The notes under the pieces were generated by a model that had not been told where the DNA came from, searched no databases, and was given only the letters and a program-made list of their open reading frames with translations. 64,000 nt of DNA from Acutalibacteraceae bacterium (GTDB taxonomy: Bacteria > Bacillota > Clostridia > Oscillospirales > Acutalibacteraceae), in assembly GCA_045539925.1 (NCBI GenBank), contig JAZQGH010000121.1:8572-72571 (forward strand). Reading direction: 5' to 3'. This document shows positions 25,001 to 48,885 of the stretch, in pieces (the stretch's first letter is position 1; the number at the start of each line of letters is the position of its first letter). Position numbers and translations under genes: made by a program.

Positions 25001-25457
25001 ACAATACTGCAAACTCAGAACCGATGTCCTCTCCAGAGGAGAAGGATATACCACCGATAATATCCTCGTGTGACAAAACGTAGCTGTTAGCTGCTGCAAT
25101 ATCATCCGAATCGGCAGTTCTGAGGCCGATCTTCAGATCCTCAAGCTTTATGCTGCCATCGGGGCTACGCAATTCAATGTTGAGTGTTTCAAATCCTGCT
25201 GAAATCTTAGGACTACCAACCTTGAAAATGGGGTCGGTAACATCATCACATTGTCCTGCTGACCAGCTGATTGAACGATAAGCTCTTTCCGAGCCTGCTC
25301 CTGCACCGGCATCGAGCAGTCTGTCAAATGCTTCGTTAAAATCTCTTGTCTGAGGCTCAGCATCAGCAAAGCTGACGGTGGGAATCATACAAAGAATCAT
25401 AGAAGCAAGCAACAATACTACGGTAATGCAAGCAATTTTACGATTTTGTTTTCTCAT
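22098..25457 (-). CDS. secreted 1119-aa repeat protein (signal peptide, at least five ~130-aa beta-rich modules, Ig-like domain, acidic Pro-rich linker, C-terminal amphipathic helix)
   Basis: N-terminal signal peptide. Recurring module pattern Y.Y.GW......YL.IE..G......EFGG....W....G........F......Q.L.IDL..SGI.G.L..IHVH. Ends in NFFQKIWKAITDFFKMIGNFFKNLFTKKQ. No LPXTG. Confidence 0.75.
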   Translation of the reverse strand: MRKQNRKIACITVVLLLASMILCMIPTVSFADAEPQTRDFNEAFDRLLDAGAGAGSERAYRSISWSAGQCDDVTDPIFKVGSPKISAGFETLNIELRSPDGSIKLEDLKIGLRTADSDDIAAANSYVLSHEDIIGGISFSSGEDIGSEFAVLSIDFASTEVKVSGKAFDSTAPDAMLAFHLYTADSTVAGKLDIRKVSVTTGSNETVVLDFDTVNEAWWNGGEAGTFVNVPKHYAVTDKISIASDDAAHNNLDEKYGAIVLNVAGENASVAPILEDGSVGAAKSWNELTDLAGTPVAALDVNFRNAVISLESLGAKKIKGVEISGNVLVAGAFFTNLDSIQPDKYFPVLDTESITYMSQFNFEYLTAGPDYDKAVTDSAAFNCDYILSYSTKNNVIKDGHLVLDAQGEAFTSIKIRSKVASEGKQYLVIKYKLENGATLNDFRFDVLKTDGDTGVGIKYANQLLVGTGLPSLSDANPYLGTNGYNYLVIDLEKTFGERYISGVDMYISGEGQVLIDEIFYAHPVIEAGELGENILAAPQEIVVNDADGGYQYLGWVGLDGQKHAGIEIVMRGEGNANLDNVRFEMGGKVTWFADNAEGTFLDSYGRRMPALSTENQVYYIDLANSGITGALNEIHVHGSPVVGGGKIIIESIRYADYPSAPLETSDEILADDFPGKEVTAGAAGYSYIGWINGSSGNGYDYLILEVEGDISKLRMEFGGIGIFWVEQNDAGSLRDRDGNLFATSGKQILVIDLEKSGIVGTLGDIHVHNEFAAAGDVLKITSAKFAKEPEEELAKSDEILADDFPGKEVTAGAAGYSYIGWINGSLGNGYDYLILEVEGDISKLRIEFGGIGIFWVEQNDAGSLRDRDGNLFATSGKQILVIDLEKSGIVGTLGDIHVHNDFAAAGDVLKITSAKFAKELIGYEDIVLPENDDCAPVISEGIADSAKLGDEIILSATATDNYGGDVTIRFEVTFGTEAVEVSDGKFVASKVGTYSVKIIASDGINEREEVVSVVVTCEHVDGNNDGKCDACDFQMTTPPGDDKPDDENPDDDKPGENETPGGDDKPGEGETPDDGEQPDDEQPEQPEPELNFFQKIWKAITDFFKMIGNFFKNLFTKKQ
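22705..23458. repeat. near-identical tandem duplication, 2 x 393 bp, inside the surface-protein gene
   Basis: Identical 64-aa spurious ORFs at 22771..22965 and 23164..23358, exactly 393 nt apart. Direct comparison of the 22705-23065 and 23098-23458 stretches shows only a few mismatches. Confidence 0.85.
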
Positions 25458-30184: not shown

Positions 30185-31393
30185 TTATTCTGAGGCTTTG
30201 AAATTGTAGATGGGCTTTATGTGGTGGAGGATCTCTGCGGTGGGGGCGATGTTATGGATTATTTCGTCCATGCTCTTATAGGCCATAGGCGACTCGTCGA
30301 GAGTGTCGGGTGTGACGCTGGTAGAGTAGATGCCTGCCATCTCGCGCTCGTAATCCGCCATGGTAAGGCGCTCAAAGGCGACGGAACGGGACATAAGACG
30401 TCCTGCGCCGTGAGGCGCGGAGAAATTCCAATCCTCGTTTCCCTTACCGATGCAGATAAGCGAGCCATCACGCATGTTGATGGGAATGAGAAGCTTCTCG
30501 CCCGCCTTGGCTGAGACCGAGCCCTTTCGAAGTATCATATCCGAGACGTCAATATAATTATGTATCGTCTGGAAGGACTCTATTGCGGTCCAGCCGCATC
30601 TGTCAAGGATGATCTCTGCCATTTTTGCGCGGTTTCTCACAGCAAATTTCTGACAGATATCCACGTCGTGAAGATAATCCTCCATAAAGGATCCGTGAAG
30701 GTAGCAAAGCTCCTTAGGTAAGGAGGGCTCCTTCGCTTGCCATTCCTTAGCAACCTGCTTCAGGGCATCCTGAATCTCCGAGCGTCTGCCCTCGGCTTTA
30801 TAGGTAGAGATGATCTCATTCCTCTTTTTAAAGTACTCCTCCTTGCCGATATCAAGATCGGCGGCAAGCTGCTGATAATAGTTTGCCACCTGGGTGCCAA
30901 GATTACGGCTGCCCGAGTGGATTATAAGATACTTTCCTCCCTCATCGTCAACGTCCACCTCGATAAAATGGTTGCCGCCACCGAGGGTACCGAGAGATCT
31001 CTCAAGCCTTCTGGAGTCCTGAAGATTTCTGTAACAGCGAATCGCGGTAAGATCAAATCTCTCCTGTCTGCCCTCCCAGACATCTCTGCCGGAGGGAATA
31101 AAGTGTGCCGCCTCATCAAGCTTCTCAAAATCTATATCTATCTTGCCAAGGTAAACGGTATACATACCGCAGCCTATATCCACGCCCACCATAGCGGGAG
31201 CGACTCTATCCGATACGGTCATGGTTGTGCCTATGGTACAGCCCTTGCCCGCGTGTACGTCGGGCATTATTCTTATCTTGGAGCCTGCATAGGCTTCGGT
31301 GTCACACACCGCCATTATCTGCTCGGCGGCTCCATCCTCAAGCGTAGTCGCAAACACGCGCGCAGTGTTAAATTTTCCTTTAATTTCTATCAT
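30185..31393 (-). CDS. rtcB: RtcB-family RNA 3'-phosphate/5'-OH ligase
   Basis: Motifs PDVHAGKG, DIGCGM, GGGNHFIE, HSGSRNLG, APHGAGR. Start at MIEIKGKF with an AAAGG RBS. Confidence 0.85.
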   Translation of the reverse strand: MIEIKGKFNTARVFATTLEDGAAEQIMAVCDTEAYAGSKIRIMPDVHAGKGCTIGTTMTVSDRVAPAMVGVDIGCGMYTVYLGKIDIDFEKLDEAAHFIPSGRDVWEGRQERFDLTAIRCYRNLQDSRRLERSLGTLGGGNHFIEVDVDDEGGKYLIIHSGSRNLGTQVANYYQQLAADLDIGKEEYFKKRNEIISTYKAEGRRSEIQDALKQVAKEWQAKEPSLPKELCYLHGSFMEDYLHDVDICQKFAVRNRAKMAEIILDRCGWTAIESFQTIHNYIDVSDMILRKGSVSAKAGEKLLIPINMRDGSLICIGKGNEDWNFSAPHGAGRLMSRSVAFERLTMADYEREMAGIYSTSVTPDTLDESPMAYKSMDEIIHNIAPTAEILHHIKPIYNFKASE

Positions 31394-31450
31394 AATGTAA
31401 ACCTTTCTTGTCATTTAGTCGGATTTGGCATACCCGACCTTGGTTTACGG

Positions 31451-32551
31451 TCAGGTATTGCCCTTGATAATTCCTGTAAGCTGAGATAGAATATCTCCAC
31501 CGCCGGCAATGCTGATGTTGCCAACGTTCTCAAAGATTCTCTCAACGTACTCAAGCTCCTTAAGCTTATAGAGGGTCTGGTTTTCGTCCATCAGCTTTGC
31601 AGTGTTAAGTAGCGATCTGGTGGATGCAACCTCCTCGCGGCGGGTGATAACGTTTGCCTGAGCACGCTTTTCGGCAATGAGAACGGTATTCATAATATCA
31701 CGAACCTCGCCGGGGAGGATAATATCCTTTACTCCCGCGTCGACGATCTCGATAAAGAGCTCTTTTTCCTTTGCCTTGAGTCTTTCCAGCATAAATTCGG
31801 TCATACGCTCCTTGTTTTCAAGGATCTCATCTAGCTTGTATTTACCAACGTATTCGCGGAGAGCAAGCTGTGCCGCAACGTGCATCTGCTCCTCGAAGTT
31901 ATCGATCTCGGTAAGGATCTTAACGTAATCGGTAATTCGGTAGTTGCAAACGAAGTTGATGCGAAGCGAAACCTTATCGGCGGTAAGGATCTCCTGGCCG
32001 GTAATATTCATCTGAGTGAGACGGGTATCCACATAGCTTACCTCGACCTTTACAGGTGTTCTCCAGAAATAATAGGTGCCTGCGCCGAGAATACGCTCAA
32101 GCTTCTGATTGAAGTATACTCTGGCCTTCTGATACTCGGCAACCTCAACCTTGATATACCAGAGCTGAGGGATCTTCGAGAATACGTATTCGGGAACAGA
32201 CTCATCAACGTCGGGAGTAGAGATATCAACGATCCTGAACTCGTGGCTGTCCACCACAGACCAGAAGGCATATTTACCGTAAGGAAGGACCGAGGACAGC
32301 TTGCCGTTTACGTAATGAAGAGCAAGCTCCTGATCACCCACCTCGACTACCGCAACATTCTCTGCCACCTTTTCGTCTTTAAGCAGCGTTTCAAGAGAGC
32401 ATTTTGCCGAGATGATGGGTCGATCGAGGGCAGAAGCCTCGATTTCTCTGCCGCCGTAGAGGTAGTATTTGCCCGCATCGAGCATTCTGATATATTTTCC
32501 ATTTTTGAAAAGAAAGCCTCTTTGGTTTTCATTGATAATGATCTTTTTCAT
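31451..32551 (-). CDS. SPFH/Band-7 domain protein without N-terminal TM, with an N-terminal SPFH-like half-repeat
   Basis: C-terminal region matches stomatin/prohibitin family (FVCNYRITD...AAQLALREYVGKYKLDEILENKER...VKDIILPGEVRDIMNTVLIAEKRAQANVI). N-terminal ~170 aa repeats the start of the fold. Start MKKIIINE with an AAAGGA RBS. Confidence 0.65.
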   Translation of the reverse strand: MKKIIINENQRGFLFKNGKYIRMLDAGKYYLYGGREIEASALDRPIISAKCSLETLLKDEKVAENVAVVEVGDQELALHYVNGKLSSVLPYGKYAFWSVVDSHEFRIVDISTPDVDESVPEYVFSKIPQLWYIKVEVAEYQKARVYFNQKLERILGAGTYYFWRTPVKVEVSYVDTRLTQMNITGQEILTADKVSLRINFVCNYRITDYVKILTEIDNFEEQMHVAAQLALREYVGKYKLDEILENKERMTEFMLERLKAKEKELFIEIVDAGVKDIILPGEVRDIMNTVLIAEKRAQANVITRREEVASTRSLLNTAKLMDENQTLYKLKELEYVERIFENVGNISIAGGGDILSQLTGIIKGNT

Positions 32552-32568
32552 AATATGTATTCCTTTTC

Positions 32569-33186
32569 TCAATAATTAATCGATTTTTGTCCTGTTTTGT
32601 TGTATCCGAAGCACTCGTGGTAGAGCTTTTTGCCCACGTAATCCTTATATCGGTAGCAGTCATATCGGTAAAACTCGTTCCAATAGCTGATCATCCTGGA
32701 GTGGCCGAGCTTGAAATAATCAAGATTAAGTGCGCAGAGAGCTTTATATTTTTCATTATTTTTCCCTTGAAGCTCGCGATAAACAACCTCAAGGATCTCT
32801 TTTACATATTCATCGCAAATTTTAATAACATACGGTATCGCATAATCAGGCAGATCCAAGCCCAGCATAGCTTCTATATGCTTTTGGCGAATATATCCGT
32901 CATAGCTTCTCGAAAAGATGCAATGATATATCAGCCTTTGACCTTCGGTCAATTTATCGGCTGAGACAGATACGTCATCAACGTATATACGATAAGGGAT
33001 CTTTATGCTTTGACCCGACGGAAGCCGCCATTTGGTACTTTTGTCGCTGATCAGCGCACCGCCGAATGCGAGACCTCTTGTTGACATAGCCTTAACAACC
33101 GTCTCCACGTCTGAGGCAAGCTCACACGGAAACGCAGGCAGAAGCGATCGGAGCAGCATATTTCTTTTTGTCCTGAAGAAAAGCAT
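32569..33186 (-). CDS. hypothetical protein (205 aa, Tyr/Cys-rich C-terminus), first gene of the operon ending in rtcB
   Basis: ORF with an AGGAGGG RBS 6 nt upstream of ATG. No recognisable motif. Confidence 0.5.
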   Translation of the reverse strand: MLFFRTKRNMLLRSLLPAFPCELASDVETVVKAMSTRGLAFGGALISDKSTKWRLPSGQSIKIPYRIYVDDVSVSADKLTEGQRLIYHCIFSRSYDGYIRQKHIEAMLGLDLPDYAIPYVIKICDEYVKEILEVVYRELQGKNNEKYKALCALNLDYFKLGHSRMISYWNEFYRYDCYRYKDYVGKKLYHECFGYNKTGQKSINY

Positions 33187-33473
33187 TCTATCCCTCCTTT
33201 TTATTGTTTTTGATCATTCATACAAAAGCAGCGGCTGAGGGCTTAAGTGCTCCCGTCTCGGTGCGGAAGGCTAAGCTCTGGCAAGGATAAGAGATACACG
33301 GTATCTGCACTCAGGCAGGGCTGCTTTTGTATTGCCGAGGCATAGGGATCTCTCCCCCTGCTCGGCCGAATGACGTGTATGAATATAACGTTCCCGCACG
33401 TGGGATCTCTCCTCACGTACCGTTATAAGCGCCTCAATGAAACAAATCCAAAACCTCCTGGCGATACGCTTTT

Positions 33474-33562
33474 TGCGCACGGTGGGATTCGAACCCACGA
33501 AAAAAATCGGCTGTGAACCGCTGCATGTCAGGCAGAAGCAAGCAACCTCCTTTGGCATACGC
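33474..33562 (-). other. tRNA-like 3' fragment (canonical T-arm GTGGG-TTCGAAT-CCCAC plus 7-nt acceptor 3' strand) lacking a foldable D-arm; pseudo-tRNA or att remnant
   Basis: Minus-strand sequence CGTGGGTTCGAATCCCACCGTGCGCA. An anticodon-like hairpin (CTGC-ctgacat-GCAG) lies upstream. A 7-T run sits where the variable loop would be. No D-stem pairing. Flanked by imperfect direct repeats GCGTATGCCAAAGGAGGTT and GCGTATCGCCAGGAGGTT. Confidence 0.3.
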
Positions 33563-33649
33563 TACGGAATATCCCCGCGCACCTCGGTGAAAAATACACT
33601 CGTCGAAAGCCCCTTGCAAATTCATTCTATCATCCTTTATATGCGTTTT

Positions 33650-33690
33650 CACGGAAAAAAAGCTGCGAACTCTTATCTGAGTCCGCAGTT
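33650..33690 (-). terminator. rho-independent terminator overlapping the stop of the WYL gene
   Basis: Minus-strand hairpin CTGCGGACTC-agataa-GAGTTCGCAG (one mismatch) followed by CTTTTTTTTCC. Confidence 0.5.
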
Positions 33691-34584
33691 TTTCTGTTTT
33701 TTTAGCTTTTTGATGACTAAATTCCTGAAATCCTCGGACTCCATCACCTCTACAAGAGGACCGAAGGAAAGGATCCTTATTACCATTTCAGGCTCGTCAT
33801 CGTGAGCATATTTAATTTTTATAAGATAATGCTTACGGTCAAGCTTCTCTGCCCTCTTTTCAAAATGGGCAAAATGAAGCATAAAACGCTCCAACGCGTT
33901 TCTCTCATCGGTAAGACGTACAGTCACCGTATCATACTTGACGTCGCGCTCGTGACCTGCAAGCTGCTTCTCACCATTGTAGTGATTGCAGTTTATGATC
34001 TTCGAAAGGTTGACCGTTCCGATTGAACGTCTGCCTGCCGTAACAAGCCTGAATTTATCATCCTTTTCGGAATACTCAAGCCTTACGGGATAGCATCTTA
34101 TATAGATCGGATTACCATTTCGGCTGATCATCTCAAAACGGATCTGCGTGTGATTTCGAATAGCCTCAAGAATCACTCTGAACTGTCTTATATATTCCTC
34201 GTCCTCATACGGATCGCCGTCGGAATATTTGTCGTAAACATAATAGTCCTCGGAGGTGAAAAGAGGCTCTACACCGTCAAGGTCGGGAAGCTCCACACCG
34301 AAAAGCCTGATTCTCGGATCGAGAGAAACGGCCTTCAGCCATCGCCTTTGCAGATTGGTGAGCGGCATTGTAGGCTTGTGCAGAAGGGGGGTGGTCATAT
34401 CGGGGCGAACAAGCTGCCACCTCTCGCTCTTAAGCGAGGGAATAACGGTAAGAGCGCTCTCCTCAAAGGCCTTTTCAGTGACTATTCTTTTAAGCTCCTT
34501 CTCCGAGCGCTCGCCGTCACAGATCCTCGACAGGATCGCGGCTACGGTGTTATAGTATGCTGAGTAAAGCTCGGAAAATATCAT
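33673..34584 (-). CDS. WYL-WCX domain transcriptional regulator (303 aa)
   Basis: N-terminal HTH-like segment. WYL beta-barrel region (NGNPIYIRCYPVRLEYSEKDDKFRLVTAG...NLSKI). C-terminal WCX-like MVIRILSFGPLVEVMESEDFR. ATGA overlap with the upstream WYL gene. Confidence 0.65.
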   Translation of the reverse strand: MIFSELYSAYYNTVAAILSRICDGERSEKELKRIVTEKAFEESALTVIPSLKSERWQLVRPDMTTPLLHKPTMPLTNLQRRWLKAVSLDPRIRLFGVELPDLDGVEPLFTSEDYYVYDKYSDGDPYEDEEYIRQFRVILEAIRNHTQIRFEMISRNGNPIYIRCYPVRLEYSEKDDKFRLVTAGRRSIGTVNLSKIINCNHYNGEKQLAGHERDVKYDTVTVRLTDERNALERFMLHFAHFEKRAEKLDRKHYLIKIKYAHDDEPEMVIRILSFGPLVEVMESEDFRNLVIKKLKKQKNCGLR

Positions 34585-35837
34585 TCCTCCACCTCCTCTA
34601 TACCGTACATTTTATACATCGCACGAAGATCGTCCTTAAATCTGTTTTCAATAGTACGGTTTGAAAAATTCATCTGCACAATACGGCAAATAAAGGTACG
34701 TATCCAGGGAATCATCTCGCTTGTGTCATAAACGTCAGCGACGAAGCGGTAGGTGTTATCGTCAATTTTCTCTACCCTGCCGACTCGCTTTTCTCTCTCA
34801 AGGCGGCGCACAATATATTCCTCTCCCTCGCCGACCCTTACAGTAAACTCCACGTGCTCCAGGTGATCGTGCCCCCATTTGCTGTGCTTTACGTTAACGC
34901 CCCACATCTTATCCTGCATTCGGTCAAGCTCCGCGCGAAGCTCGTCAAATCGAGGAGTCACCTCCTCAAGCCTTGCGTGCGAAAGATAGTCAAGGCGGTA
35001 TGCGTGAAAGGAGTTGAATTCGGGAATATAGGCGATAAGGTTCTGCCTGCCGTTCTGAACGCTTATGAGAATACGAAGAGGTATCAGGCGACAACGCCTC
35101 GGCATATCCTTTCTCTTCGCAAGATTGGATACGGTAACAGCCCGCTTTTCTCTCATAGCGGTGAAAAGCGTTGCCATAATGCCGCTGTCTATAGCACCTG
35201 TTATGTAGTGATGCTTGAAGGTAAAGTGATCCTCGTGATGCTCGCTCTTATCCAGAATGAAGGAGCCTATTACTCCGCAGGGCGCAACCTCCGAATAGTA
35301 ATGCAGAAGATCGTTAAGCTCGGAAACATCAACATCACGGGCTCTTCGATAGTATACCCTACGTCCCTCGCGCTCGGTAATGATAATACCCTCATCGGCG
35401 TATTCCTTAAGCTTTTTACGTACCGTAGACTCGTCAAACATCATCGGTGTCTTAAAGCCTGAGAGATATTTTTCGTCTACGTCCTCCATTATCTCCGACA
35501 AGGTGCGTCTGACGGTGGGATCGTGAAGAATATCGAAGATAATGAAATGAAGAGTAATGTCTCCGTCGGTAAAGCTCTTGGCCTTCCAGGCGTTATAAAG
35601 AGGGGTGTGGCTGATGCTTCTGCTATCGATGGAGATAAATACGTTCTTGCCCTCGGGAGTACGGACAAAGCTCATATGCGAGCCAAGCCAGCTGGCAATA
35701 CGGCGGCGCTCGTCATCGTAGGAGCGCGCACTTTTCCTACTGTAATCCTCGCGACTCTTGAAGCCGTAGACATAGAATTCACGCATATACGCGCGAATTC
35801 GCTCAAAGCTTTTAATAAGCTCGCTGTATGATGACAT
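34581..35837 (-). CDS. WYL-WCX domain transcriptional regulator (418 aa), tandem partner (PafB/PafC-like arrangement)
   Basis: wHTH N-terminus (YSELIKSFERIRAYMREFYVYGFKSREDY). WYL core CRLIPLRILISVQNGRQNLIAYIPEFNSFHAYRLDY. C-terminal WCX-like region. Start reassigned to MSSYSELIK with an AGAAAGGAG RBS. Confidence 0.65.
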   Translation of the reverse strand: MSSYSELIKSFERIRAYMREFYVYGFKSREDYSRKSARSYDDERRRIASWLGSHMSFVRTPEGKNVFISIDSRSISHTPLYNAWKAKSFTDGDITLHFIIFDILHDPTVRRTLSEIMEDVDEKYLSGFKTPMMFDESTVRKKLKEYADEGIIITEREGRRVYYRRARDVDVSELNDLLHYYSEVAPCGVIGSFILDKSEHHEDHFTFKHHYITGAIDSGIMATLFTAMREKRAVTVSNLAKRKDMPRRCRLIPLRILISVQNGRQNLIAYIPEFNSFHAYRLDYLSHARLEEVTPRFDELRAELDRMQDKMWGVNVKHSKWGHDHLEHVEFTVRVGEGEEYIVRRLEREKRVGRVEKIDDNTYRFVADVYDTSEMIPWIRTFICRIVQMNFSNRTIENRFKDDLRAMYKMYGIEEVEE

Positions 35838-35941
35838 ATTGCGCTCCTTTCTACCGTTATCCCAAGGGGAAAGGCGTGTTGTTTTTTGTGTTTTTGACAA
35901 CTATAGTTGTCATATTTGTCTTTTCAAGCCAAAACACGCGC

Positions 35942-38900
35942 TTATTTTTTGCGTTTAAAGACAAATCTTTGCACAAGGAAGCAGGCAAGAATGCTGAGGC
36001 CTGTGGGAAGAAATCCGAATGCCAGGGCATCCCAAATCGAATAAATATCGAAAATCATCCACTCAAAGATGTCGAGCTGAACAAACAGAAACATAGCAAA
36101 TTGCAGGAAAACAGCTCCCCAGATGAATCTGCCCGGCCACTTCGCAATTGGAAACAGCTTGCCTGAAATGCGTGAGTTTATAGCGAAGGGAATGATCGCA
36201 CTGAGCATGATCAAGACGTAATACTGAACAAAATCATAGCTCAATTCTATAAGCGGAAACAGTCCGGAAATAATACCGAATGCGGCGATTATGATCATGG
36301 CGATAATACCGACTATTTGCTTTGCAGTCGGCTTTTCCCTTACGCCAGCGAAGGCGACACTCTTCCTTACAAAGGGCTTTTGCCGAGCTTTTTGTGCTTT
36401 CTCGCGGCGGTTTTTCTTGCCGTCGGTATTTACGGAAGTATTTTTTGCAGAATGTGATACCTTTTTATTTTTCTCGGTCATCGTAGACTTTTTGCTTTCG
36501 GGAAGAGCAGTTTTTGCGGGGGTTACTTGTCTTGCAATTGTTTTTTCGCCCTGCTCGTCCCACGAGTTTCTTATCTTATCCCAAAAAGCAGACCTTGAGG
36601 CCTTTACAAAGGGGTCATTCTGGCTAAGATTATCAAAGAGGAGGATCTTTTTGGGAATGCCCAATGTGGTAGGATCGTTGACCAGATGAAGCTCGCCTCT
36701 TACCACGGAGTTCTTAAGCGTGGTTATCTTCAGGATTGAGACCATATTGTATGATATATTATAAAAGCAACCGTCAACACAGATAATAACATCGCGGCTC
36801 GACATAACAAAAGCATCATTATGTTTTTCAACCAGCTTGCCTTTAGTATACATTTCAAATGACCTGATGGCTTCATTTATGTTACCCGAACGATACCGGC
36901 ACTGACCCGCCTTAAATAAAGCAGTATTGCTTCTGGCAGAGATTGCCTTATAACATTTCAAGGCGTTGCCTGCGTCCTTTTTCTCCATATATGCATCGCC
37001 CATTTTTTCGATGCATTCGACAGTACGACCGTTAAGGTAATTTCCATTTACTTTATCTAATATACGAAGCGCCGCATCGTTATTTTTCTCATCGAAGCAC
37101 AATTGCAGAATGCCTTCTGCCAATTTATTATTATAGCTACCAAGGCGGTTGTACCAGATAAGAGCATTCTCGATATCTCTTTTATAGCAGTAAAGGGATA
37201 TCATTGTCTCTGCTGCGCGCGGATTTTTCTTTGTTTTCCAGCTTTTGGTTAACCATTTAACGGCTTCCTCGGATTGACCCTTGCTACGATAGAAGGAACC
37301 GATGGTCAGCATAAATTCGTCATCCTCTATCTCAACGCCTGCAACCTCGCACGCCTTAACAAAGGAATCCAAATTAAGATTCACGTTGGAATTAGAGGGG
37401 CGATCGATATTCTTCTGAACATCCGCGTAGCGTCCGTTCTTAGCATATGCGACCAACAGACAGAGCATATCCTTGATATATTCGTTTTTTGCTTGCGCAC
37501 CCCAATTTGAATTGGGATTTTTATGCTTAAGCTTGCTATCTAAGATTCTGATGGCCTCAAGTCCGCTGCCAACTCTTACACTCAAATCGCATATACGGGG
37601 CTCCAGATAACTCAGGTCCTTGGTGATGTACTTGATCATAGCATAATAGGAATATGCCTTTTTCTCTTCCCCTTTATCAAAATACCAATCTCCCAATCTG
37701 CAAATAATGGAAGTATCAGAATGAGCATTGCCGTCGATGTAACGGTCATACCATATTACAGCATCACCGCGCTTTCCGTTATTCCAGTAAATATGGCCGA
37801 TATCGAGTGCGACTCTCGGATTCTTTTCGGATTCCCATGCCCCGGCATACCAAACTATCGCATCGTCGAGCTTTCCGTTCTTTCGATAAATATTACCGAT
37901 CTCAAGCGCGGCGTTCGTATTCTTTTCAGATTCCCACGCTCTGCTATACCATTTAAGAGCCCTGTCATATTGCTCTGAAGAACGGTAACTTTCTGCCAGG
38001 ATCATTTCAAATCCGCGGTCGGAGCTCGACCACAGCTGCTCATAAAGGCGCTCTGCCTCGGTGTGGTTCTGATTTTCCAAATGATATCTGGCAATGATTT
38101 TAAGAAGGGGGACATTATCGGTATCCTTATCTGTCTCCGCCTTAATGCATATCTCTGCTACCTTATTGTCATTAACAGATTTGCATTTGGTAATGTAACC
38201 GATCATAAGCTTCTCAATGTCGGACCTGCGACCTGCCTTAAGGTACGAGTCCGCAACCGCAAATACTACCCTCGAGTATGCGCTGATCTCGCCTGGCGCA
38301 AGCTGGAGTTTATCATTGAGACTCAAATAGATCTCATAATATGGAATCGCTTCATTTTCTTTGCCGGTTGATGCGTAAAGATCGGCAAGGCGCAGGTTGA
38401 TATCAGCACTCTCGCCGGCCTTGGAAAGTCTATCATACCAAAGGACCGAATTTTCAAGATCACCCTTATCCAGATAATATTCAAGAATGCGCTCGATTAC
38501 CTTTTCGCTGAGCTTTTCATTCCCGTATTTCAGATACTCGCAAACAGCATCCTCCTTATGTCCCTTGGAATAAATAGCATCACCGAGCTTCATTGTCAGG
38601 CTCTTCAGCCTTGTCTTATATTCAGGTCCCTTGCCGCGAGCGATGTTCTCATCACGCTTTTTTTCATAAATGGGGATAATGCCTCTTATATCGCTCAAGC
38701 CTACGAGGTTGGGGGACTTTTTCTCAATTTCCTCAAAACAGCTTATGGCTTTTTCGGGATCGTTCTTTTTGTAATACTCCAGCAAGAATGAACACATTTC
38801 GTAGTTGTATTCCTCGCTGCAATACTCTGCGTAAAGCTCTTCGACAGCACCCGTATCGCCGCTGTTGTTATATATATTGCCAAGGAGAAGGTACCATACC

Positions 38901-39706
38901 TCTACAGCCTTAAGATCGCCTCTTTTTTTGTAGAGATCAATAACTGCGCGTGCGACAGATACCTTTTCTTCATCCGATAAGCAATTGTATTCTTTGTTTC
39001 GTGTGATGTTGCTGACAGCACGGACCCTTTCAATGCACTTATGCATTTTTTCTTCTGTGGTGCTATCGCTGTATTTAAGATAATAAATTAACGCCTCCAC
39101 GGGCTGATCGCAGGAGCAAAGAATATCTGCCATCTTGATGCCGAGCTCCTTATCTTCCTTGATGGAGAGAGCCTTTTTATATTGCTCTATAGCCTCGGAT
39201 CTCTTGCCTAGTGCCATATAGCAATCGCCCATGCCTGTTATTACGCGAGGGTCTGTATCCCGACTCTCACATTCGGAATAATGCCATAATGCTTCGTCGG
39301 GATCCTCAGAGGCAAGCATACCTGCAACGAAGATCCTCTGCTCATCCGAGAGAGGCTCTTTATCGGAGAACATATAGTTTTCCAATGCCATATCATCCTT
39401 AGAAAGCATACGATAGGCATCTCCGAGACGTGGAGCAGCACCATAGCTTTGCAGTCCCTCAAGCCAGCTTATGACATAGGTATAGCATTCGGAGTCGAAA
39501 AGCGTATTGGCAACCGAGAGTCTCTGCTTTACCGACAGAGAGCCAACGTCAGCATCCTCCGCATCGGTTGCAAGACGATAATACTCCGCCGCGCTCTTGA
39601 GATCATTTTCAGCACGGCATTCGTCGCCAAACTTAATATATCCGTCGAAGCCTATTTCGCCCTGCTCTGATGCTGCCGCGGCTTCGTTTTTCAAGATATC
39701 ATTCAT
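35942..39706 (-). CDS. giant Sel1/TPR-repeat protein (1254 aa) with C-terminal polytopic membrane anchor
   Basis: Many Sel1-like repeats (YSRAWESEKNTNAALEIGNIYRKNGKLDDAIVWYAGAWESEKNPRVALDIGHIY...). A basic linker, then ~5 hydrophobic helices at the C-terminus. GGAGG RBS. Confidence 0.7.
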   Translation of the reverse strand: MNDILKNEAAAASEQGEIGFDGYIKFGDECRAENDLKSAAEYYRLATDAEDADVGSLSVKQRLSVANTLFDSECYTYVISWLEGLQSYGAAPRLGDAYRMLSKDDMALENYMFSDKEPLSDEQRIFVAGMLASEDPDEALWHYSECESRDTDPRVITGMGDCYMALGKRSEAIEQYKKALSIKEDKELGIKMADILCSCDQPVEALIYYLKYSDSTTEEKMHKCIERVRAVSNITRNKEYNCLSDEEKVSVARAVIDLYKKRGDLKAVEVWYLLLGNIYNNSGDTGAVEELYAEYCSEEYNYEMCSFLLEYYKKNDPEKAISCFEEIEKKSPNLVGLSDIRGIIPIYEKKRDENIARGKGPEYKTRLKSLTMKLGDAIYSKGHKEDAVCEYLKYGNEKLSEKVIERILEYYLDKGDLENSVLWYDRLSKAGESADINLRLADLYASTGKENEAIPYYEIYLSLNDKLQLAPGEISAYSRVVFAVADSYLKAGRRSDIEKLMIGYITKCKSVNDNKVAEICIKAETDKDTDNVPLLKIIARYHLENQNHTEAERLYEQLWSSSDRGFEMILAESYRSSEQYDRALKWYSRAWESEKNTNAALEIGNIYRKNGKLDDAIVWYAGAWESEKNPRVALDIGHIYWNNGKRGDAVIWYDRYIDGNAHSDTSIICRLGDWYFDKGEEKKAYSYYAMIKYITKDLSYLEPRICDLSVRVGSGLEAIRILDSKLKHKNPNSNWGAQAKNEYIKDMLCLLVAYAKNGRYADVQKNIDRPSNSNVNLNLDSFVKACEVAGVEIEDDEFMLTIGSFYRSKGQSEEAVKWLTKSWKTKKNPRAAETMISLYCYKRDIENALIWYNRLGSYNNKLAEGILQLCFDEKNNDAALRILDKVNGNYLNGRTVECIEKMGDAYMEKKDAGNALKCYKAISARSNTALFKAGQCRYRSGNINEAIRSFEMYTKGKLVEKHNDAFVMSSRDVIICVDGCFYNISYNMVSILKITTLKNSVVRGELHLVNDPTTLGIPKKILLFDNLSQNDPFVKASRSAFWDKIRNSWDEQGEKTIARQVTPAKTALPESKKSTMTEKNKKVSHSAKNTSVNTDGKKNRREKAQKARQKPFVRKSVAFAGVREKPTAKQIVGIIAMIIIAAFGIISGLFPLIELSYDFVQYYVLIMLSAIIPFAINSRISGKLFPIAKWPGRFIWGAVFLQFAMFLFVQLDIFEWMIFDIYSIWDALAFGFLPTGLSILACFLVQRFVFKRKK

Positions 39707-39772
39707 TGCTTTACCTCCAAAATCTTATACTGTCTGTATGGCCCAAGATGGCCTATAGATCCGACGATGCGA

Positions 39773-42700
39773 TTATCTGCTCCTGCGAGCCTCGTTTCGT
39801 CTGTCGATCCATTTCTCCGCCCTCTCGGGGCTTTCTGTTCCCTTGTAATATCTGATCATATAATTAATGATTCCGGTATCTGTAAGTGAGCCCTCATCAG
39901 CGTATTTCTCATAGCATTCTACGGCTCTGACATCACCGCTTAAGCGATAGTAATTACCGAGATCGATAAGAAGCGAGACGTCGGGAAGTGTGCATCCGTA
40001 TTCGCTGTACCACGCGGAGAGCCTGTCCCATTTGTTGTATTCTCTGACATAGGAAATAATTCCCTCGGGAATTTTCTTGTACTCACCGCCACCGATAAGC
40101 TGCTCAAAAAGCCCGAAGGCTTCTTTGTTCCTGCCGCCTTTAATAAGCATTTCGCAGACGAATTCCAGCTTGTTAACGTCGGTAATGACGTCGAGGCACT
40201 TCATATACGTCTCAAAGGCCTTCTCATCCTCCTGCTCCTCCCGATAACAGTCTCCTATGCGCTCGGTTACGGTATCGTCATAGAAGAACTCGGTTGAGCA
40301 TTCAAGATAATTGGTGAGGGCGTCGGTATAATTTCCACGATCGTACCAGACGTCGGCAAGCTTTTTCTTTATTGAGGGGTCACCGGTCTCCTCTATGCAT
40401 TCCTTGTAAATCCTGATTGCGCCATCGACGTCATCGTTGGCATAATAGCAATCGGCTACTCTGCCTTTGAGCTTCGGATCGGTATCAACGTTTTTACATC
40501 TGCTGTAATACCCATAGGCCTCCCCGATCTTACCATCCTCAAGCAGATAGTCGGCTACTACTATCTTACGGTCATCGGGCAGCCTATCCGCCTCGACACC
40601 AAGATACTTTTCCACCGCCTCCTTACGCTTGCCGAGCATAAGATAACAGTCACCGCAATAAACGGCAGGCAAAATGTCCTCATCTGCTATTCTCTCAAAC
40701 CAGCTTATAGCCTCGGTGTAGTTCTTCTTATTCATATAATCCATACCCAACAGATAGCAGGGACGGTATTTATACATATTTTCCCTGTTGCTGCCATCCT
40801 TAGGCATGTAATCCTTGGCCAGAAGGAAATAATGAACCGCCTGCTTTTTATCCTCGACCTTGTCCGATTTACCATAGTAATTACCAAGATAAATGCAAGC
40901 ATTGAAGTTGGGATGCTTTTGAGACGCGGCCTTCGTATACCATTCCAGGGAGATCTTCTCATCCTGAGACTCGTAATAGCGCGCAAGCCTATACTGAGCA
41001 TCGGTATAATTGTTATCGGCGGACATCCTATAGTAGGCAAGGGCAATATCCATATTCTGCGTAAAGCCGATGCCTCTTTCATAATTAGACGCAAGTCTGT
41101 ACTGCGCCTTGCGGTCGCCCATATCGGCAGCCTTCTTAAGATAATCATTTGCAAGGACTATAAGATCCTCACTCTTTGTTTCCTTATATTGATTGAAATA
41201 GCTGTATCCCAGACTGCAGAATTCGGTGGCGCTTATGCTTCTGGACTTGTATTCCTTGATAAGCTCGCTGAGATTTACGTTGCTGTTAAGCTCGATCGCC
41301 TCGCTTACATCACGGTTCAGCAGATCCTCGTCCACGTATTTTGCAAAGCACATCTTGCCCTTGTAACCACCGTAGATCTGCTTCTTGTTGACAAGCTTAA
41401 AGCCCCAGGTCTTCTCAAAGCTCCTTACAAGGCTTTTCAGATGCTCTGCCTTTTTACTGAGCACATCCGCGCTGAAGGTGGGGTTATAATAATCGCGTAC
41501 AAAATGCTCAATATCTGCGGACATATCTATAATTCTCTCAAGCTGAGAATCAAGGATGATCTGGTCGTGCTTTTTTTCGTTAAGAGCGTGATTGAAGGCG
41601 TGCTTTGTCCAATATGTAAGCCCGTCTGTCTTTTTAAGATAAATACCGCAGGCCTCGAATTTTTCAAAGTTTTCGATATGACTGTCAATCTTAAGCGGCT
41701 TGATAGAATCAACGGCGCGGCACCTCTCAAACTCCTTATCAAAGGGAAGCATATATTTTATAAGAATGGTTTCCTTAAAGAGACTCTGATATTCCCATCT
41801 CTTGCTGTGTAGCTTAAGTCTGTCGATCTCCACACCATCCTTCAGCCTTGCAGAAAGCTGATCCATAGTCATACCCGTGGCGAGAAGCTTGTCTCTGTGC
41901 TCCTGCTGTGCATCTATAAGCTTGCAAAGCTGCAGGTATCTCTCATAAAATCTCTTGGGATGAGTGTTATTCAGAATGGCATTGATTGCCTTATCGTCTC
42001 GCTCTATCTTGCCGAGCCAACGCCTTACGTTACCCTCTATGCCCTGCTTCTCACCCGAGTATCGGCTTGCTATCTCCTCAAGATCCTCGGAGTCATATCT
42101 GCAGGGGTACTCCTCATCATATAAAATACGATACTCGTCAATATCGTTAAGCTGATCGTTGATGAGATCTATCAGCTCCTCTATCTCCCTTGAGGAACGT
42201 CCGGGCTGGTCGATTATTCCCTGTATTTTCTTCTCACGGAGTGTAAGGTTATCTATAAGCGCTTTCTTGGATGCGGTGCCGTCGTTGATAAGCCTGGATG
42301 CCATATTGCCCACCTCGGATGCCCAATCCTCGGAGCTCATAGAAACGGTAGGAATATCCCCCTTCTCGTCGGCCGCTTCGGTAACAAAGAGAAGCTTTTT
42401 TTCCTCCTCGGACTTCATCTCCGTATACTGCACCGTAAGGAAGCTCTTTTCCGCATCCTCTGCCGATTGACAGAAACAGATCATAAGGGAGGATGTACGC
42501 ATTGCAGCGAGAAGCTCGGGAGATGCATATGCAGTGCTGCCATTCAGACGGAAGGCCTCCACCGAGTACTGATCCATCTCGGTCATCTCATTGAGCAGAT
42601 CGATCGCCTGATCCTTGTATTTTCCCTCATATAGAATTACGACGTCGATCTCAGAGCTGTTTTCAAGAGCAGCATAGTATTTTTCAAGTGGGTCTGCTAC

Positions 42701-43162
42701 CTGCTCCTTTACGTCTCTGTAATCATTAAGAAGCTCATTTCTCTTTGTCGCATCGCCAATAGCCTTATACGTATCCTGAAGCTTTTCAAATATCTGATAT
42801 CCCTCAGAGGATTTCCAGGAATCCACGCTGTCATAGGCGTAATCATAGATAGCAATTCTGATATCCTCTTTTCCAAGCTCGAGAACGGCGTTGGAGTCGC
42901 ATTTAAGCTTCTCGGACACTAACAATAAATACTGCTCGGTGTCAGAGCCGCAGTCGGCGAGGATCTCAATAGCCTGAGACAGGTCAACGTCTGCAAAATT
43001 GCGAACAGCACGTCTGCCCATCGAGCGCTTGATAAGATCATCTGTCTTTTCAATAATGGCATACGCCGCGTCGGACATTTGCCTCAGATCGACGATCTGC
43101 TCCTCGTTCTCGACATCAGGACGTCTTATACCAATAATAGGTTCTGTCATCATTGCATCCAT
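39773..43162 (-). CDS. giant Sel1/TPR-repeat protein (1129 aa) with ~600-aa N-terminal domain of unknown function
   Basis: Sel1-like repeats in the C-terminal half (GDRKAQYRLASNYERGIGFTQNMDIALAYYRMSADNNYTDAQYRLARYYE). GAGGAG RBS. Confidence 0.7.
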   Translation of the reverse strand: MDAMMTEPIIGIRRPDVENEEQIVDLRQMSDAAYAIIEKTDDLIKRSMGRRAVRNFADVDLSQAIEILADCGSDTEQYLLLVSEKLKCDSNAVLELGKEDIRIAIYDYAYDSVDSWKSSEGYQIFEKLQDTYKAIGDATKRNELLNDYRDVKEQVADPLEKYYAALENSSEIDVVILYEGKYKDQAIDLLNEMTEMDQYSVEAFRLNGSTAYASPELLAAMRTSSLMICFCQSAEDAEKSFLTVQYTEMKSEEEKKLLFVTEAADEKGDIPTVSMSSEDWASEVGNMASRLINDGTASKKALIDNLTLREKKIQGIIDQPGRSSREIEELIDLINDQLNDIDEYRILYDEEYPCRYDSEDLEEIASRYSGEKQGIEGNVRRWLGKIERDDKAINAILNNTHPKRFYERYLQLCKLIDAQQEHRDKLLATGMTMDQLSARLKDGVEIDRLKLHSKRWEYQSLFKETILIKYMLPFDKEFERCRAVDSIKPLKIDSHIENFEKFEACGIYLKKTDGLTYWTKHAFNHALNEKKHDQIILDSQLERIIDMSADIEHFVRDYYNPTFSADVLSKKAEHLKSLVRSFEKTWGFKLVNKKQIYGGYKGKMCFAKYVDEDLLNRDVSEAIELNSNVNLSELIKEYKSRSISATEFCSLGYSYFNQYKETKSEDLIVLANDYLKKAADMGDRKAQYRLASNYERGIGFTQNMDIALAYYRMSADNNYTDAQYRLARYYESQDEKISLEWYTKAASQKHPNFNACIYLGNYYGKSDKVEDKKQAVHYFLLAKDYMPKDGSNRENMYKYRPCYLLGMDYMNKKNYTEAISWFERIADEDILPAVYCGDCYLMLGKRKEAVEKYLGVEADRLPDDRKIVVADYLLEDGKIGEAYGYYSRCKNVDTDPKLKGRVADCYYANDDVDGAIRIYKECIEETGDPSIKKKLADVWYDRGNYTDALTNYLECSTEFFYDDTVTERIGDCYREEQEDEKAFETYMKCLDVITDVNKLEFVCEMLIKGGRNKEAFGLFEQLIGGGEYKKIPEGIISYVREYNKWDRLSAWYSEYGCTLPDVSLLIDLGNYYRLSGDVRAVECYEKYADEGSLTDTGIINYMIRYYKGTESPERAEKWIDRRNEARRSR

Positions 43163-43189
43163 ATATTTTCTCCTCTGAAGATAGTTTTT

Positions 43190-45103
43190 TTAGTCTGTCA
43201 CCTCCGCGGAAGCAACAAGTTGTACCTCATCTGCACAAGGGCCGTTATAATTTCTTCCCATCACGAAGGAAACCCTGGCACCGATTACAAATCCTTTGTC
43301 ATCTCCCTTTACCTGGAAATAAATACCTTTTTTATCCTGCGGCCTGTCGGGATTTCTGATAAATCCATATTTGCTCTCGGGGTTATATTTCATTATTACG
43401 CTCTCGCGTCCGGGCTTCTGCTTGCCGATAGGTGATACAGGCTTTGCCACCTCGGTCTTTACGGGCTGAGGCTTAGGCTCCGTATAGGCTTTGGCGGTGT
43501 CATCCGCCTTATCAAGATAAGCCTTGACATCATCAAGCGACTTGAATCTGATCTCGGGAATCCTGACGTAAAGTGCCTGAAGATCCTTTTCAAGCTTCCT
43601 TCCGTCTGAGAAGAAACGAGTGAGCTTGTCATCCGAGCCTGATTCCCTCTCGACAAAATTCTTGTCGATCCTGCCGTCCTCAAGCATTTTCAAAAGCATT
43701 TCATCTCTGGTGACGTAGTAGTTTTTGATTCCATCGGTCAGATCATACTGATCCACGCCCCATTCGTGAAGTTTTCTTGCATTTTCTCTGATTATTTCGG
43801 CATTCTTCTTTCTCTCGGCATCGCTCATTATGATTAACCTGTTTTCATTATGAATGAAGGCATTGGTGCTCGAGTAAATGCCCGCAAGCTCATCGTCATG
43901 TGCAGCAGGCTTTGACGATGCGAACTTCTGCTTCACCTTCTCTCCGGGGGAGAACAGGAGACCGTCGGTAAGCTTGATTCCCTTCTTGAATCGGCAATAC
44001 AGCTCAATGCAGGCGCGGATCTTAAGCTGTGCGGACTGAATATCCGCGGGATTTCTGGAAAGGTGATGCTCAACCTCCTTAACGATATCGCCGGTCGTAT
44101 CCCCACGAAGCGCAGAAAGATATGCGGTATTCGCAAGCAGCTCGTCAAGCTGCGCCTGATTTCTCTCCGCCTGCCTTTTCTGCTCGCCGCGAAGATCTTT
44201 TATAAGTCCCTCAAGATCGGTAATTTTTCTCATTACCTGAAGCATCGCCACGTTAAGCTCATCCTTCGGCATAGCCTTGACTGAGTCTTCATAATCCTTG
44301 GCATCGCTTCTGTAAAGTCTCTCGAGAAGAGTCTCCTCAATTGCCCTCCTGAAGTCGGTATCGTCGATCTCCGCCATAAATGGGCTGTCTGATACCTCCC
44401 CTGCAATTCTATCAATAGCCTCAAGCTCGGCGAACAGCTCGCCCTCCAGCTCCTTGTTCTCCATAACAAGATCGCTGTACTCATCGGCGCCCATGGTGAT
44501 TCCCGCCATAGCGCTCTCGGTGGACCGCCTTCTCTCAACCGCGCTGCTGATGGAGACGTTAGCCTTGTTCATTCTATGAAGCTTTGAAAGCTCGGATTTC
44601 TTATCCTTAAGACCGGACAAAAGTCCGCTGTGCTCGGATACAAGAGCCATATATCTTGCGGAGTCGGTGGGGTAATTGTTGATAATCCATTCCTCCTCTA
44701 TTGCCTTGATACGCTTCTCGGTCTCCTCTATCTCTGTGGTGATTCCCTTGATCTTAATACGGCCTTCCATAGCCTTATCCTTACCGGCCTCATAATCCGC
44801 GTCGAATTTGTTGCTTTCAAGAAGGTAGCTCCTTACGTGATCGTGAACTCGCTCGGCGTAGAGCTCGAAAGAATCGGGATTCTTCACCGCCTTGTTTATG
44901 TATTCCTGAATTCTTAAAAGCACATCCGAATAGTCGGAAAGAGTCTCATCGGTGGCAGAGCGAATAACGGCAATGTCCTCCTTAAGCATGCGAAGAGCGT
45001 TTACCGAAACATCGGTTATCTCAAGTCGCTCAACTATTTTGTCTGACGCTGTTTCTATATTGAGAACCATTTCTCTTACATCGGTCTTTGTCTTATTCCA
45101 CAT
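43190..45103 (-). CDS. coiled-coil protein (637 aa) with C-terminal cold-shock-like OB-fold domain
   Basis: About 560 aa of charged heptad-like sequence. Last ~65 aa match the CSD pattern (VIMKYNPESKYGFIRNPD...KGIYFQVKG...GARVSFVMGRNYNGPCADEV, compare VKWFNxxKGFGFI...VFVHFS...G..V.F). AGGGAG RBS. Confidence 0.6.
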   Translation of the reverse strand: MWNKTKTDVREMVLNIETASDKIVERLEITDVSVNALRMLKEDIAVIRSATDETLSDYSDVLLRIQEYINKAVKNPDSFELYAERVHDHVRSYLLESNKFDADYEAGKDKAMEGRIKIKGITTEIEETEKRIKAIEEEWIINNYPTDSARYMALVSEHSGLLSGLKDKKSELSKLHRMNKANVSISSAVERRRSTESAMAGITMGADEYSDLVMENKELEGELFAELEAIDRIAGEVSDSPFMAEIDDTDFRRAIEETLLERLYRSDAKDYEDSVKAMPKDELNVAMLQVMRKITDLEGLIKDLRGEQKRQAERNQAQLDELLANTAYLSALRGDTTGDIVKEVEHHLSRNPADIQSAQLKIRACIELYCRFKKGIKLTDGLLFSPGEKVKQKFASSKPAAHDDELAGIYSSTNAFIHNENRLIIMSDAERKKNAEIIRENARKLHEWGVDQYDLTDGIKNYYVTRDEMLLKMLEDGRIDKNFVERESGSDDKLTRFFSDGRKLEKDLQALYVRIPEIRFKSLDDVKAYLDKADDTAKAYTEPKPQPVKTEVAKPVSPIGKQKPGRESVIMKYNPESKYGFIRNPDRPQDKKGIYFQVKGDDKGFVIGARVSFVMGRNYNGPCADEVQLVASAEVTD

Positions 45104-45115
45104 GATGATACTCCC

Positions 45116-45676
45116 TTAAAACTTAAATCTGTGTTTATTTAGTTGCTTTGGCTGCTGAGTCTGATTGCTTGCAACCTTTGTCTTTATATCCACTCTATCA
45201 ATCAGCATTCCAAGATCCTTGATAAAATGCTCGCGGAAGAAGATCATAAGCTCCCTCTCGAGCAGCTCGCATGCATTGCCGCCGAAGAATGCAGCCTCGT
45301 TGGTAATGGATCTGTCGGCGAGAAATTTGGTTATTAGGTTTGTAGCCGCCGTCATACCTTCCCATTCAAGGATCAGATCGGGCATTTTTGCCTTAAGCAG
45401 ACGACTGTTATTAATAACGATAGTCGGAAAAGCAACGTGTGCGATCACCAAAAAGGTGAAGGAGATATTACCGCGATCGTAGAAAAGCTCGAAGCTGTTC
45501 TCGCCCTCGTCTACAAAATACCACTCTGCACCCTCGTGGGAAAGCGGATAAGTGCCTCCACCCCTTATAAGGCCACTCACGCGTCCGTTCTCAACCGAGA
45601 CAAGCAATTCGTTGTTGTCAAGCTTGAAGGAGGCTCTGTTTTTTGGAATTTTGTAAGCGATCTTCGAGTTTCTCAT
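45116..45676 (-). CDS. hypothetical protein (186 aa)
   Basis: ORF with a GAGGAG RBS. No motif recognised. Confidence 0.5.
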   Translation of the reverse strand: MRNSKIAYKIPKNRASFKLDNNELLVSVENGRVSGLIRGGGTYPLSHEGAEWYFVDEGENSFELFYDRGNISFTFLVIAHVAFPTIVINNSRLLKAKMPDLILEWEGMTAATNLITKFLADRSITNEAAFFGGNACELLERELMIFFREHFIKDLGMLIDRVDIKTKVASNQTQQPKQLNKHRFKF

Positions 45677-48878: not shown

Positions 48879-48885
48879 ATAAGAA

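Follow-up and report, generated by a model that had tools for sequence, protein, structure and literature searches.

Results

Genes A and B

The window analysed here is a 64,000-nucleotide (nt) stretch of an Acutalibacteraceae genome (contig JAZQGH010000121.1, positions 8,572 to 72,571), and our subject is a pair of adjacent genes within it, A and B, together with the conserved DNA box and the RtcB RNA-repair cassette that lie beside them. An earlier reading of the same DNA from its letters alone (the original prediction) had described a tandem pair of translationally coupled regulators with WYL and WCX domains, and this arrangement is as it stated: both open reading frames (ORFs) lie on the minus strand, and the stop of A and the start of B share four nucleotides, ATGA.

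35837..34581 (minus strand): gene A, 418 amino acids (aa), an ORF with an ATG start preceded by the ribosome-binding site GAAAGGAG
Layout of A: an N-terminal domain, conserved and about 100 aa long, ArsR-like winged helix-turn-helix (wHTH) at about 100-168, WYL at about 218-293, WCX at about 328-410
34584..33673 (minus strand): gene B, 303 aa, its start overlapping the stop of A
Layout of B: a probably degenerate helix-turn-helix (HTH)-like N-terminus, WYL at about 129-202, WCX at about 217-298

The PADLOC WYL model (PDLC01652) recognises A (E-value 4.7e-11), B (2e-10) and a third protein of the window, C (2.8e-14). The Pfam WYL family (PF13280) is annotated, as a precomputed assignment, on most close homologues of A, which NCBI labels as WYL-domain regulators, and several homologues exceed the Pfam cut-off for WCX. 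In the AlphaFold2 (AF2) models of A and B, the WYL domain is built from one helix and five strands; the motifs YPVRLEY (B 165-171) and AYRLDY (A 279-284), quoted earlier as part of the barrel core, indeed lie in predicted β-strands of the WYL barrel. When the two models were compared with the PDB by Foldseek, PafBC, DriD, CapW, BrxR, and WYL1 came top (E 2e-9 to 1e-4), the best match of A being DriD (2e-9) and that of B to PafBC scoring 5.6e-9. Profile searches of the PDB matched A to PafB (E 9e-4) and B to PafB/PafC (0.01), the matches being confined to the WYL or WCX parts, and single-sequence PDB searches with A and B gave nothing significant. Neither CARF nor sigma-54 AAA+ domains were found in A or B by Pfam, NCBIfam, or PADLOC.

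The wHTH of A matches the NCBIfam ArsR HTH (1.5e-5), the PADLOC Csa3-type HTH (1.6e-7), and, by profile, ArsR/SmtB structures; it is rich in Arg and Lys and is modelled well (residues 96-168, predicted local distance difference test (pLDDT) 74-88). Residues 1-100 are the most conserved part of A, with many positions invariant down to 31% overall identity; they match no family and are modelled with pLDDT below 50. The N-terminal ~100 residues of A are an unrecognised domain.

BLASTP detects no pairwise similarity among A, B, and C. Comparison of A and B by hhalign gave no significance with shallow alignments, and diverse alignments were needed; with these, the two profiles align across WYL and WCX with an E-value of 3.3e-6, and a second run aligned A 107-390 with B 22-282 (E 3.9e-5). 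As the profiles align over the HTH-equivalent, WYL, and WCX regions, B probably shares the ancestral layout of A. The two proteins are very divergent paralogues of the HTH-WYL-WCX kind, with an HTH that is clear in A and putative in B.

A and B as one unit

One genome per species was scanned, which gave relatives in 441 species genomes; the best 80 of the 441 (A 63-86% identical to that of the window) were analysed as the genome loci. A metagenome scan seeded with A-B fusion proteins provided 80 more loci (A 29-67% identical). The combined set of 160 related loci (A 29-86% identical) comes from gut Oscillospirales/Clostridia. In addition, B was searched against 1.8 billion cluster representatives, yielding 349 clusters at E <= 1e-30.

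B follows A directly in 73 of the 80 genome loci, and in the other seven the contig ends there; the metagenome loci have the tandem in every complete case. Several clusters from the search with B are proteins of 685-834 aa with an A-like N-terminal half and a B-like C-terminal half. In fusion P0474, residues 1-420 correspond to A (30% identity, E 9e-63) and residues 450-752 to B, four more such fusions were found (P0461, P0508, P0480, and P0370), and A and B read through in frame at loci L085 and L103. The PafBC of Arthrobacter is a fused PafB/PafC polypeptide. Since the separate and fused states of A-B parallel those of PafB/PafC and the Arthrobacter protein, we suggest that the two proteins act together in a single complex. 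The comparison with PafB/PafC made in the original prediction is thus upheld (distant paralogues with an hhalign E-value of 3e-6, adjacent in every complete locus, with natural fusions), and a PafBC-like heteromer is a well-supported prediction.

Three further features bear on how the pair would be expressed.

35900..35927 (minus strand): promoter-like site of A-B, TTGAAA-16-TATAGT, scoring 10/12 in a consensus scan
35895..35912 (no strand assigned): perfect 18-base-pair (bp) palindrome TGACAACTATAGTTGTCA, covering the -10 of the A promoter and unique in the window
33663..33688 (minus strand): terminator-like hairpin and U-tract of B, whose 3' arm and T-tract belong to the conserved box described below

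With its own predicted promoter and terminator, A-B is probably transcribed as a self-contained unit. The regions upstream of A in the 79 other loci are unrelated to that of the window, and many have a TATAAT-like box of their own. The palindrome TGACAACTATAGTTGTCA was rejected as a conserved operator, as it is missing upstream of A in those 79 loci.

The RtcB cassette

The same strand continues 3' of B with a non-coding stretch of about 490 nt (33187..33672) and three genes.

33474..33562 (minus strand): tRNA-like non-coding RNA (ncRNA) of the Band-7-associated tRNA type; its T-arm, GTGGGTTCGAATCCCAC, is perfect, its acceptor stem has 7 bp, and its 'anticodon' varies
32569..33186 (minus strand): 205-aa ORF without a family match, a variable cassette member found in 7/80 genome loci
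31451..32572 (minus strand): SPFH/Band-7 protein, 373 aa (Pfam Band_7, 5.4e-30), syntenic in 38/80 genome loci
30185..31414 (minus strand): RtcB RNA ligase, 409 aa (Pfam RtcB, 1.3e-55), syntenic in 48/80 genome loci

A system of Band-7, band-7-associated tRNA, and RtcB was predicted by Burroughs and Aravind 2016, as cited in bioRxiv 10.1101/312249, and the cassette of the window matches it. The non-coding stretch between B and the 205-aa ORF was tried as a transfer-messenger RNA, tRNA, or known Rfam family, and each was rejected: ARAGORN and the Rfam gathering threshold returned nothing, the only match being the tRNA-like element itself, which reaches 20.6 bits with the Rfam tRNA model (gathering score 29) and is not called by ARAGORN. 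RNAalifold on 11 versions recovers three elements, namely the acceptor stem, an arm resembling that of an anticodon, and the T arm, and shows three compensatory pairs; the exact T-arm 11-mer lies at most 1.5 kb 3' of B in 41/77 loci. Some versions bear a second T-arm-like module, GGGGTTCAACTCCCC. The remaining ~290 nt of the stretch (33187..33473, minus strand) contain several GC-rich hairpin-like segments and no Rfam match.

Forty-eight genome loci have at least 4.5 kb of sequence 3' of B; RtcB is present in 38 of these and Band-7 in 27. Four of the 48 have neither by tblastn, and three of those four have a DUF2828-type gene. Loci without Band-7 instead encode a DUF2828 and DUF7788 protein some 490 aa long, accompanied by Y-RNA-like modules and by tRNA-like genes that are called by both Rfam and ARAGORN. 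The Y-RNA-like modules (5' AAAGRCNCNNACAGCAA, 3' GNGNCTTTGT) form arrays that enclose tRNA-like inserts (L134, 7100..7720, minus strand; also L004, L029, L047, and L110); the tRNAs that ARAGORN finds inside them are tRNA-Phe(GAA), Phe(AAA), which is unusual, Thr(UGU), Ile(UAU), and Met(CAU). The DUF2828 protein has no match in the PDB by sequence or profile search, and we therefore find no support there for regarding it as a relative of Ro60. In one metagenome locus (L110, 15463..17586), about 25 tandem tRNA genes lie directly 3' of RtcB.

RtcB is also syntenic with A-B in most metagenome loci. Counting a locus as linked when RtcB, DUF2828, or Band-7 is nearby, 50 of the 52 evaluable metagenome loci are linked to the cassette, and the orientation varies.

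Cassette co-directional, 3' of B: 33 loci
Cassette divergent, upstream of A: 15 loci
Linked in another arrangement: 2 loci
Unlinked, although each side has 4 kb or more: 2 loci
Too short for judgement: 21 loci
Incomplete pair: 7 loci

Because the linkage survives this change of arrangement, we suggest that A-B is a dedicated regulator of the cassette.

A conserved box at the cassette promoter

Between B and the cassette lie two short elements.

33650..33670 (minus strand): conserved box GTTCGCAGCTTTTTTTCCGTG, the candidate A-B site, which adjoins the -35 position of the cassette promoter
33624..33652 (minus strand): cassette promoter, GTGAAA-17-TGaTAGAAT, with a weak -35 and an extended -10

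The box, GTTCGCARCTTTTTTTCC, stands a fixed 23 nt ahead of the cassette -10. Its sequence GTTCGCAGCTTTTTTTCCGTG occurs once in the window, where none is expected by chance. The exact 20-mer TTCGCAGCTTTTTTTCCGTG is present in 66/80 genome loci; as protein A in these loci is 63-86% identical, the non-coding site is better conserved than the protein. In relaxed form (TCGCA[AGC]C, a T-tract, CC) the box is found in 69/80 genome and 61/80 metagenome loci (130/160 together) and in none of the shuffled sequences. A TANNNT hexamer, usually within TGGTAAAAT, begins 23 nt past the box in 119 of 135 boxes, and TGGTAAAAT is kept at the same place in related loci; the -35 position beside the box is weak across loci (GTGAAA, GTGATA, or similar).

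Where the cassette moves, the box moves with it. In divergent loci (L134, L145, L129, and others) it is on the opposite strand, between A and DUF2828; in L100 it lies 4.4 kb past B, directly ahead of the Band-7 cassette; and L047 and L123 have two cassettes, each with its own box. Throughout the fetched flanks (2 Mb in total), the box occurs at repair cassettes only.

Its overlap with the terminator-like hairpin of B raised the possibility of a plain terminator or a palindromic operator, which we rejected: the left arm varies or is missing (L008, L009, L012-L014, L019, divergent L134, and L100). The right arm of the hairpin, the T-tract, and the CC are invariant and follow the strand of the cassette, and the changes in the left arm are wobble-compatible where the arm is not missing altogether. 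A sigma-54 promoter was also discarded, the TGG..TTGCA spacing being 2 nt too long and the TTGCA being missing in the DUF2828 class. Because the box tracks the strand and position of the cassette and not the end of B, we read it as part of the promoter of the repair cassette, an element that is not palindromic.

The inserted AAA/TPR segment and gene C

Upstream of A lies a segment that is missing at the related A-B loci.

35942..54470 (no strand assigned): inserted segment of about 18.5 kb that includes C, two ORFs (190 and 1479 aa), and the 'ESCRT-like' AAA+/TPR operon
35942..47491 (minus strand): AAA/TPR operon of six genes, whose products are an AAA+ ATPase, two TPR/Sel1 proteins of very large size, and three proteins of 195, 186, and 637 aa
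47784..48878 (plus strand): gene C, 364 aa, WYL1 family, divergent from the AAA operon

The best scores of the ATPase are to IetA (PADLOC, 8e-44) and CdvC/CDC48 (NCBIfam), all far under the curated cut-offs. In L001, L002, and L004 the same genes flank the site but the segment is missing: in L001 the Rce1-like gene (54471..55250 in the window) ends 46 nt ahead of A, and in L002 and L004 it is also just upstream. None of the segment genes (AAA/TPR operon, C, and the 190- and 1479-aa ORFs) is found near A-B in any of the 160 loci (0/160). The same segment occurs elsewhere, in L081 with the same right flank and in L082 with other flanks.

C aligns with WYL1 (PDB 6OAW) over its full length (phmmer E 8.8e-19, C 16-364 with 26-390; family profile 9e-42), and 133 homologues were detected. 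No HTH match was found in C; the N-terminal domain of WYL1 is of a different kind. In L081 and L082, homologues 85% and 64% identical to C are divergent from the AAA/TPR operon, and a 47% identical homologue is found elsewhere. An association of C with Cas13d or CRISPR was considered and rejected, as the window contains no CRISPR-like tandem array and the neighbouring large ORFs have no PADLOC Cas match. A direct repeat of 25 nt (47586..47610 and 47700..47724, 84% identical) lies between C and the operon, beside two divergent TATAAT boxes; TTTGTTCCGTTT occurs twice in it (0.02 expected), and the GTTCC and CGGAAC motifs of the region are conserved in L081 and L082. The repeat is a candidate operator for C. 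As C and not A-B is co-inherited with the operon in L081 and L082, C is plausibly the local regulator of the AAA operon.

These results change the reading of the island. The original prediction had A-B closing the operon, which its own promoter-like site and terminator hairpin and its absence from beside the operon in all 160 loci (0/160) contradict. It also counted three WYL proteins in one island, but A-B travels with the RtcB cassette and only C is co-inherited with the operon. Its third WYL-WCX copy does exist and is divergently transcribed, yet it is not close kin of A or B and belongs to the WYL1 family. Ligand-gated control of the ESCRT-like operon falls for A-B, which is linked to the RtcB cassette in 38/48 genome and 50/52 metagenome loci, and survives as an idea for C only.

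Two other parts of the window may be recorded here. The 1479-aa ORF (49717..54156, minus strand) has no Pfam or PADLOC match, lies in a GC-richer stretch (0.50), overlaps an antisense ORF (51463..54075, 870 aa), and is kept beside C in L081 (1524 aa) and not in L082. A 393-nt tandem duplication (22702..23558, about two copies, 88-98% identical) lies within a 1119-aa ORF (22098..25457) that has no Pfam match.

Discussion

We propose that A and B together make up a hetero-oligomeric, PafBC-like WYL regulator, each being one of its two subunits, and that this regulator is dedicated to the adjacent RNA-repair cassette and not to the AAA/TPR operon, and we give this reading a probability of about 0.68. 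A-B, which is co-inherited with the box, would be its simplest reader; the asymmetry of the box would suit a heteromer in which one HTH is competent. In the mechanism that we envisage, A would contribute the DNA-binding wHTH, and perhaps also its conserved N-terminal domain, and B, with an apparently degenerate HTH, would contribute a second sensor module. The complex would bind the box adjoining the weak -35 through the wHTH of A, and, once a nucleic-acid ligand occupies the WYL/WCX domains, would activate the cassette with its ncRNAs (tRNA-like or Y-like), its Band-7 or DUF2828 gene, and RtcB. Activation is suggested by the box abutting a weak -35, as with PafBC and DriD; relief of repression would be the less likely alternative. 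By analogy, the most plausible ligand would be cleaved RNA or tRNA fragments, because other WYL factors sense single-stranded DNA (ssDNA) and RtcR senses tRNA fragments with 2',3'-cyclic phosphate ends. A role in sensing RNA ends and regulating RNA repair has been suggested in passing for transcription factors with WYL or CARF domains (PMC9503650). More tentatively, and as a reading less likely than not, we put forward that a heteromeric WYL sensor of damaged RNA (cleaved tRNA, 2',3'-cyclic-phosphate ends) would activate an RtcB/ncRNA regulon in Clostridia through a box of about 21 bp at about -36 to -56, as a sigma-70-dependent functional replacement of RtcR with one DNA-binding and one sensor-only subunit.

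Several observations weigh against this proposal. The Pfam WYL scores of A (21.7 bits) and C (14.5) fall below the gathering score of 21.8 and the same search of B gives no match, and for WCX all three proteins are below the cut-off of 23.9 (A 18.4, B 17.1, and C 21.3 bits); the original claim of WYL-WCX in all three therefore stands on PADLOC for A, B, and C and on Foldseek for A and B, and not on Pfam. The AF2 model of A is poor overall (mean pLDDT 53.9, residues 1-95 below 50); that of B averages 67.5. Of the two wHTH-like N-termini claimed earlier, that of A is solid and ArsR-like, but B 22-70 matches the wHTH of A by profile comparison only, is modelled at a pLDDT under 50, and contains few basic residues. 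Between the AAA/TPR operon and A there is no intrinsic terminator on the minus strand, which makes read-through into A-B possible. The two unlinked metagenome loci (L085, a true fusion, and L163) show no cassette within 8 kb of sequence on either side. Every box and cassette locus was gathered through A or B and not independently, and the whole case is one of comparative genomics and predicted structure. The reader of the box could be another factor or RNA polymerase itself. Finally, we infer both the sign of regulation (activator or repressor) and the identity of the ligand by analogy with known systems.

An alternative that overlaps with our proposal is that A-B is a global stress or DNA-damage regulator that senses ssDNA in the manner of PafBC and DriD, the RtcB cassette being only the nearest member of its regulon. 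The closest structures are indeed these ssDNA sensors, the A-B family has a core-like spread, with 441 species genomes and clusters in the thousands, and the two loci without a cassette would be accommodated. We nevertheless consider this unlikely: the box is confined to repair cassettes within the 2 Mb of fetched flanks, and the synteny, which is tight whichever way the cassette faces, argues for a local regulator dedicated to it.

A-B could instead consist not of transcription factors but of RNA-binding repair cofactors, as WYL1 is for Cas13d, which would present damaged RNA or the tRNA-like and Y-like RNAs to RtcB. WYL (Sm-like) and WCX (ferredoxin-like) are RNA-binding folds (PMC6789036), WYL1 is among the structural matches of A and B, and the cassette is rich in ncRNA. 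We judge this rather improbable, for A has a well-modelled Arg/Lys-rich wHTH of the ArsR type, Foldseek matches it and B over the full length to activators and repressors that bind DNA, a divergent arrangement is what regulators typically show, and a conserved DNA box at a fixed distance from a promoter needs a reader, for which A-B is the sole co-inherited candidate.

That A-B forms the last genes of the AAA/TPR operon and gates it together with C has in its favour the common strand, the 104 nt that separate A from the last operon gene, the missing terminator, and the frequency with which WYL repressors control defence-type operons, but is very improbable given that the operon genes are beside A-B in 0/160 loci and missing between the same flanks in L001, L002, and L004, that A-B has its own promoter-like site, that C is the protein that travels with the operon, and that the conserved box is missing from the operon promoter region (47492..47783).

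If our proposal of an RNA-repair regulator is correct, heteromeric WYL regulators extend beyond the actinobacterial PafBC. What the locus offers for experiment is a two-protein regulator, a candidate DNA site that is precisely placed, and a target unit with clear limits; the three recur across the sampled loci, and A-B could be used to test RNA sensing by WYL domains in vivo, an idea raised with the PafBC structure. For annotation, the conserved A-B/RtcB module should be kept distinct from the inserted AAA/TPR segment, which has its own WYL1-family regulator. A literature search found no paper describing the A-B pair, its fusions, or the box; the 2016 survey by Burroughs and Aravind, which possibly mentions the association, was outside the reach of that search.

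Comparison with known systems

BrxR and CapW share the fold of A and B (Foldseek E 1e-6 to 1e-4) and are likewise local regulators beside their targets. They differ in being single-gene homodimers with palindromic operators and phage-defence targets, a role that fits C better. WYL1, the Cas13d accessory protein (6OAW), resembles C in a full-length alignment; C, however, has no Cas13d or CRISPR array in the window and is divergent from an AAA+/TPR operon here and in L081 and L082. On the cassette side, the window resembles the Band-7/b7a-tRNA/RtcB system in bringing together RtcB, Band-7, and a tRNA-like RNA, and the sister loci resemble the Ro60/Y-RNA/RtcB systems with their DUF2828 protein and Y-RNA-like and tRNA-like RNAs (both systems from Burroughs and Aravind 2016); a kinship of Ro60 and DUF2828 is not detected by sequence.

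In DriD of Caulobacter the domains are again HTH, WYL, and WCX, and a single-stranded nucleic acid gates its function as an activator, but DriD is a single-gene homodimer with a DNA-damage regulon. PafBC, the actinobacterial DNA-damage activator (PDB 6SJ9, 7P5X, and 9FND), also resembles A-B: it comprises two adjacent HTH-WYL-WCX paralogues (the PafBC-like class A of PMC6789036) that are fused in some lineages, is a top Foldseek match of both proteins, and uses an asymmetric promoter element. The box GTTCGCARCTTTTTTTCC, just upstream of the -35, is presumably unlike the RecA-NDp motif of PafBC. The two systems have no BLAST similarity and come from different phyla; A-B has no link to pafA or the Pup-proteasome, its neighbour being RtcB RNA repair and not DNA repair, and A is longer by an N-terminal domain of some 100 aa, while the HTH of B looks degenerate.

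To our knowledge, RtcR is the only characterised regulator of RtcB, and we know of no RNA-damage sensing for RtcB outside the Proteobacteria. RtcR, the CARF-AAA+-HTH sigma-54 activator of rtcBA in Proteobacteria, adjoins an RtcB (and Y-RNA) repair operon, often divergently, as A-B does, and senses its ligand through a CARF domain, CARF and WYL being a pair of sensor families. Damaged tRNA fragments activate RtcR (PMC7790460). A-B differs from it in fold and mechanism, having no CARF, AAA+, or sigma-54 promoter. A-B thus belongs to neither the PafBC nor the RtcR family: it is PafBC-like in its presumed working and RtcR-like in its presumed role.

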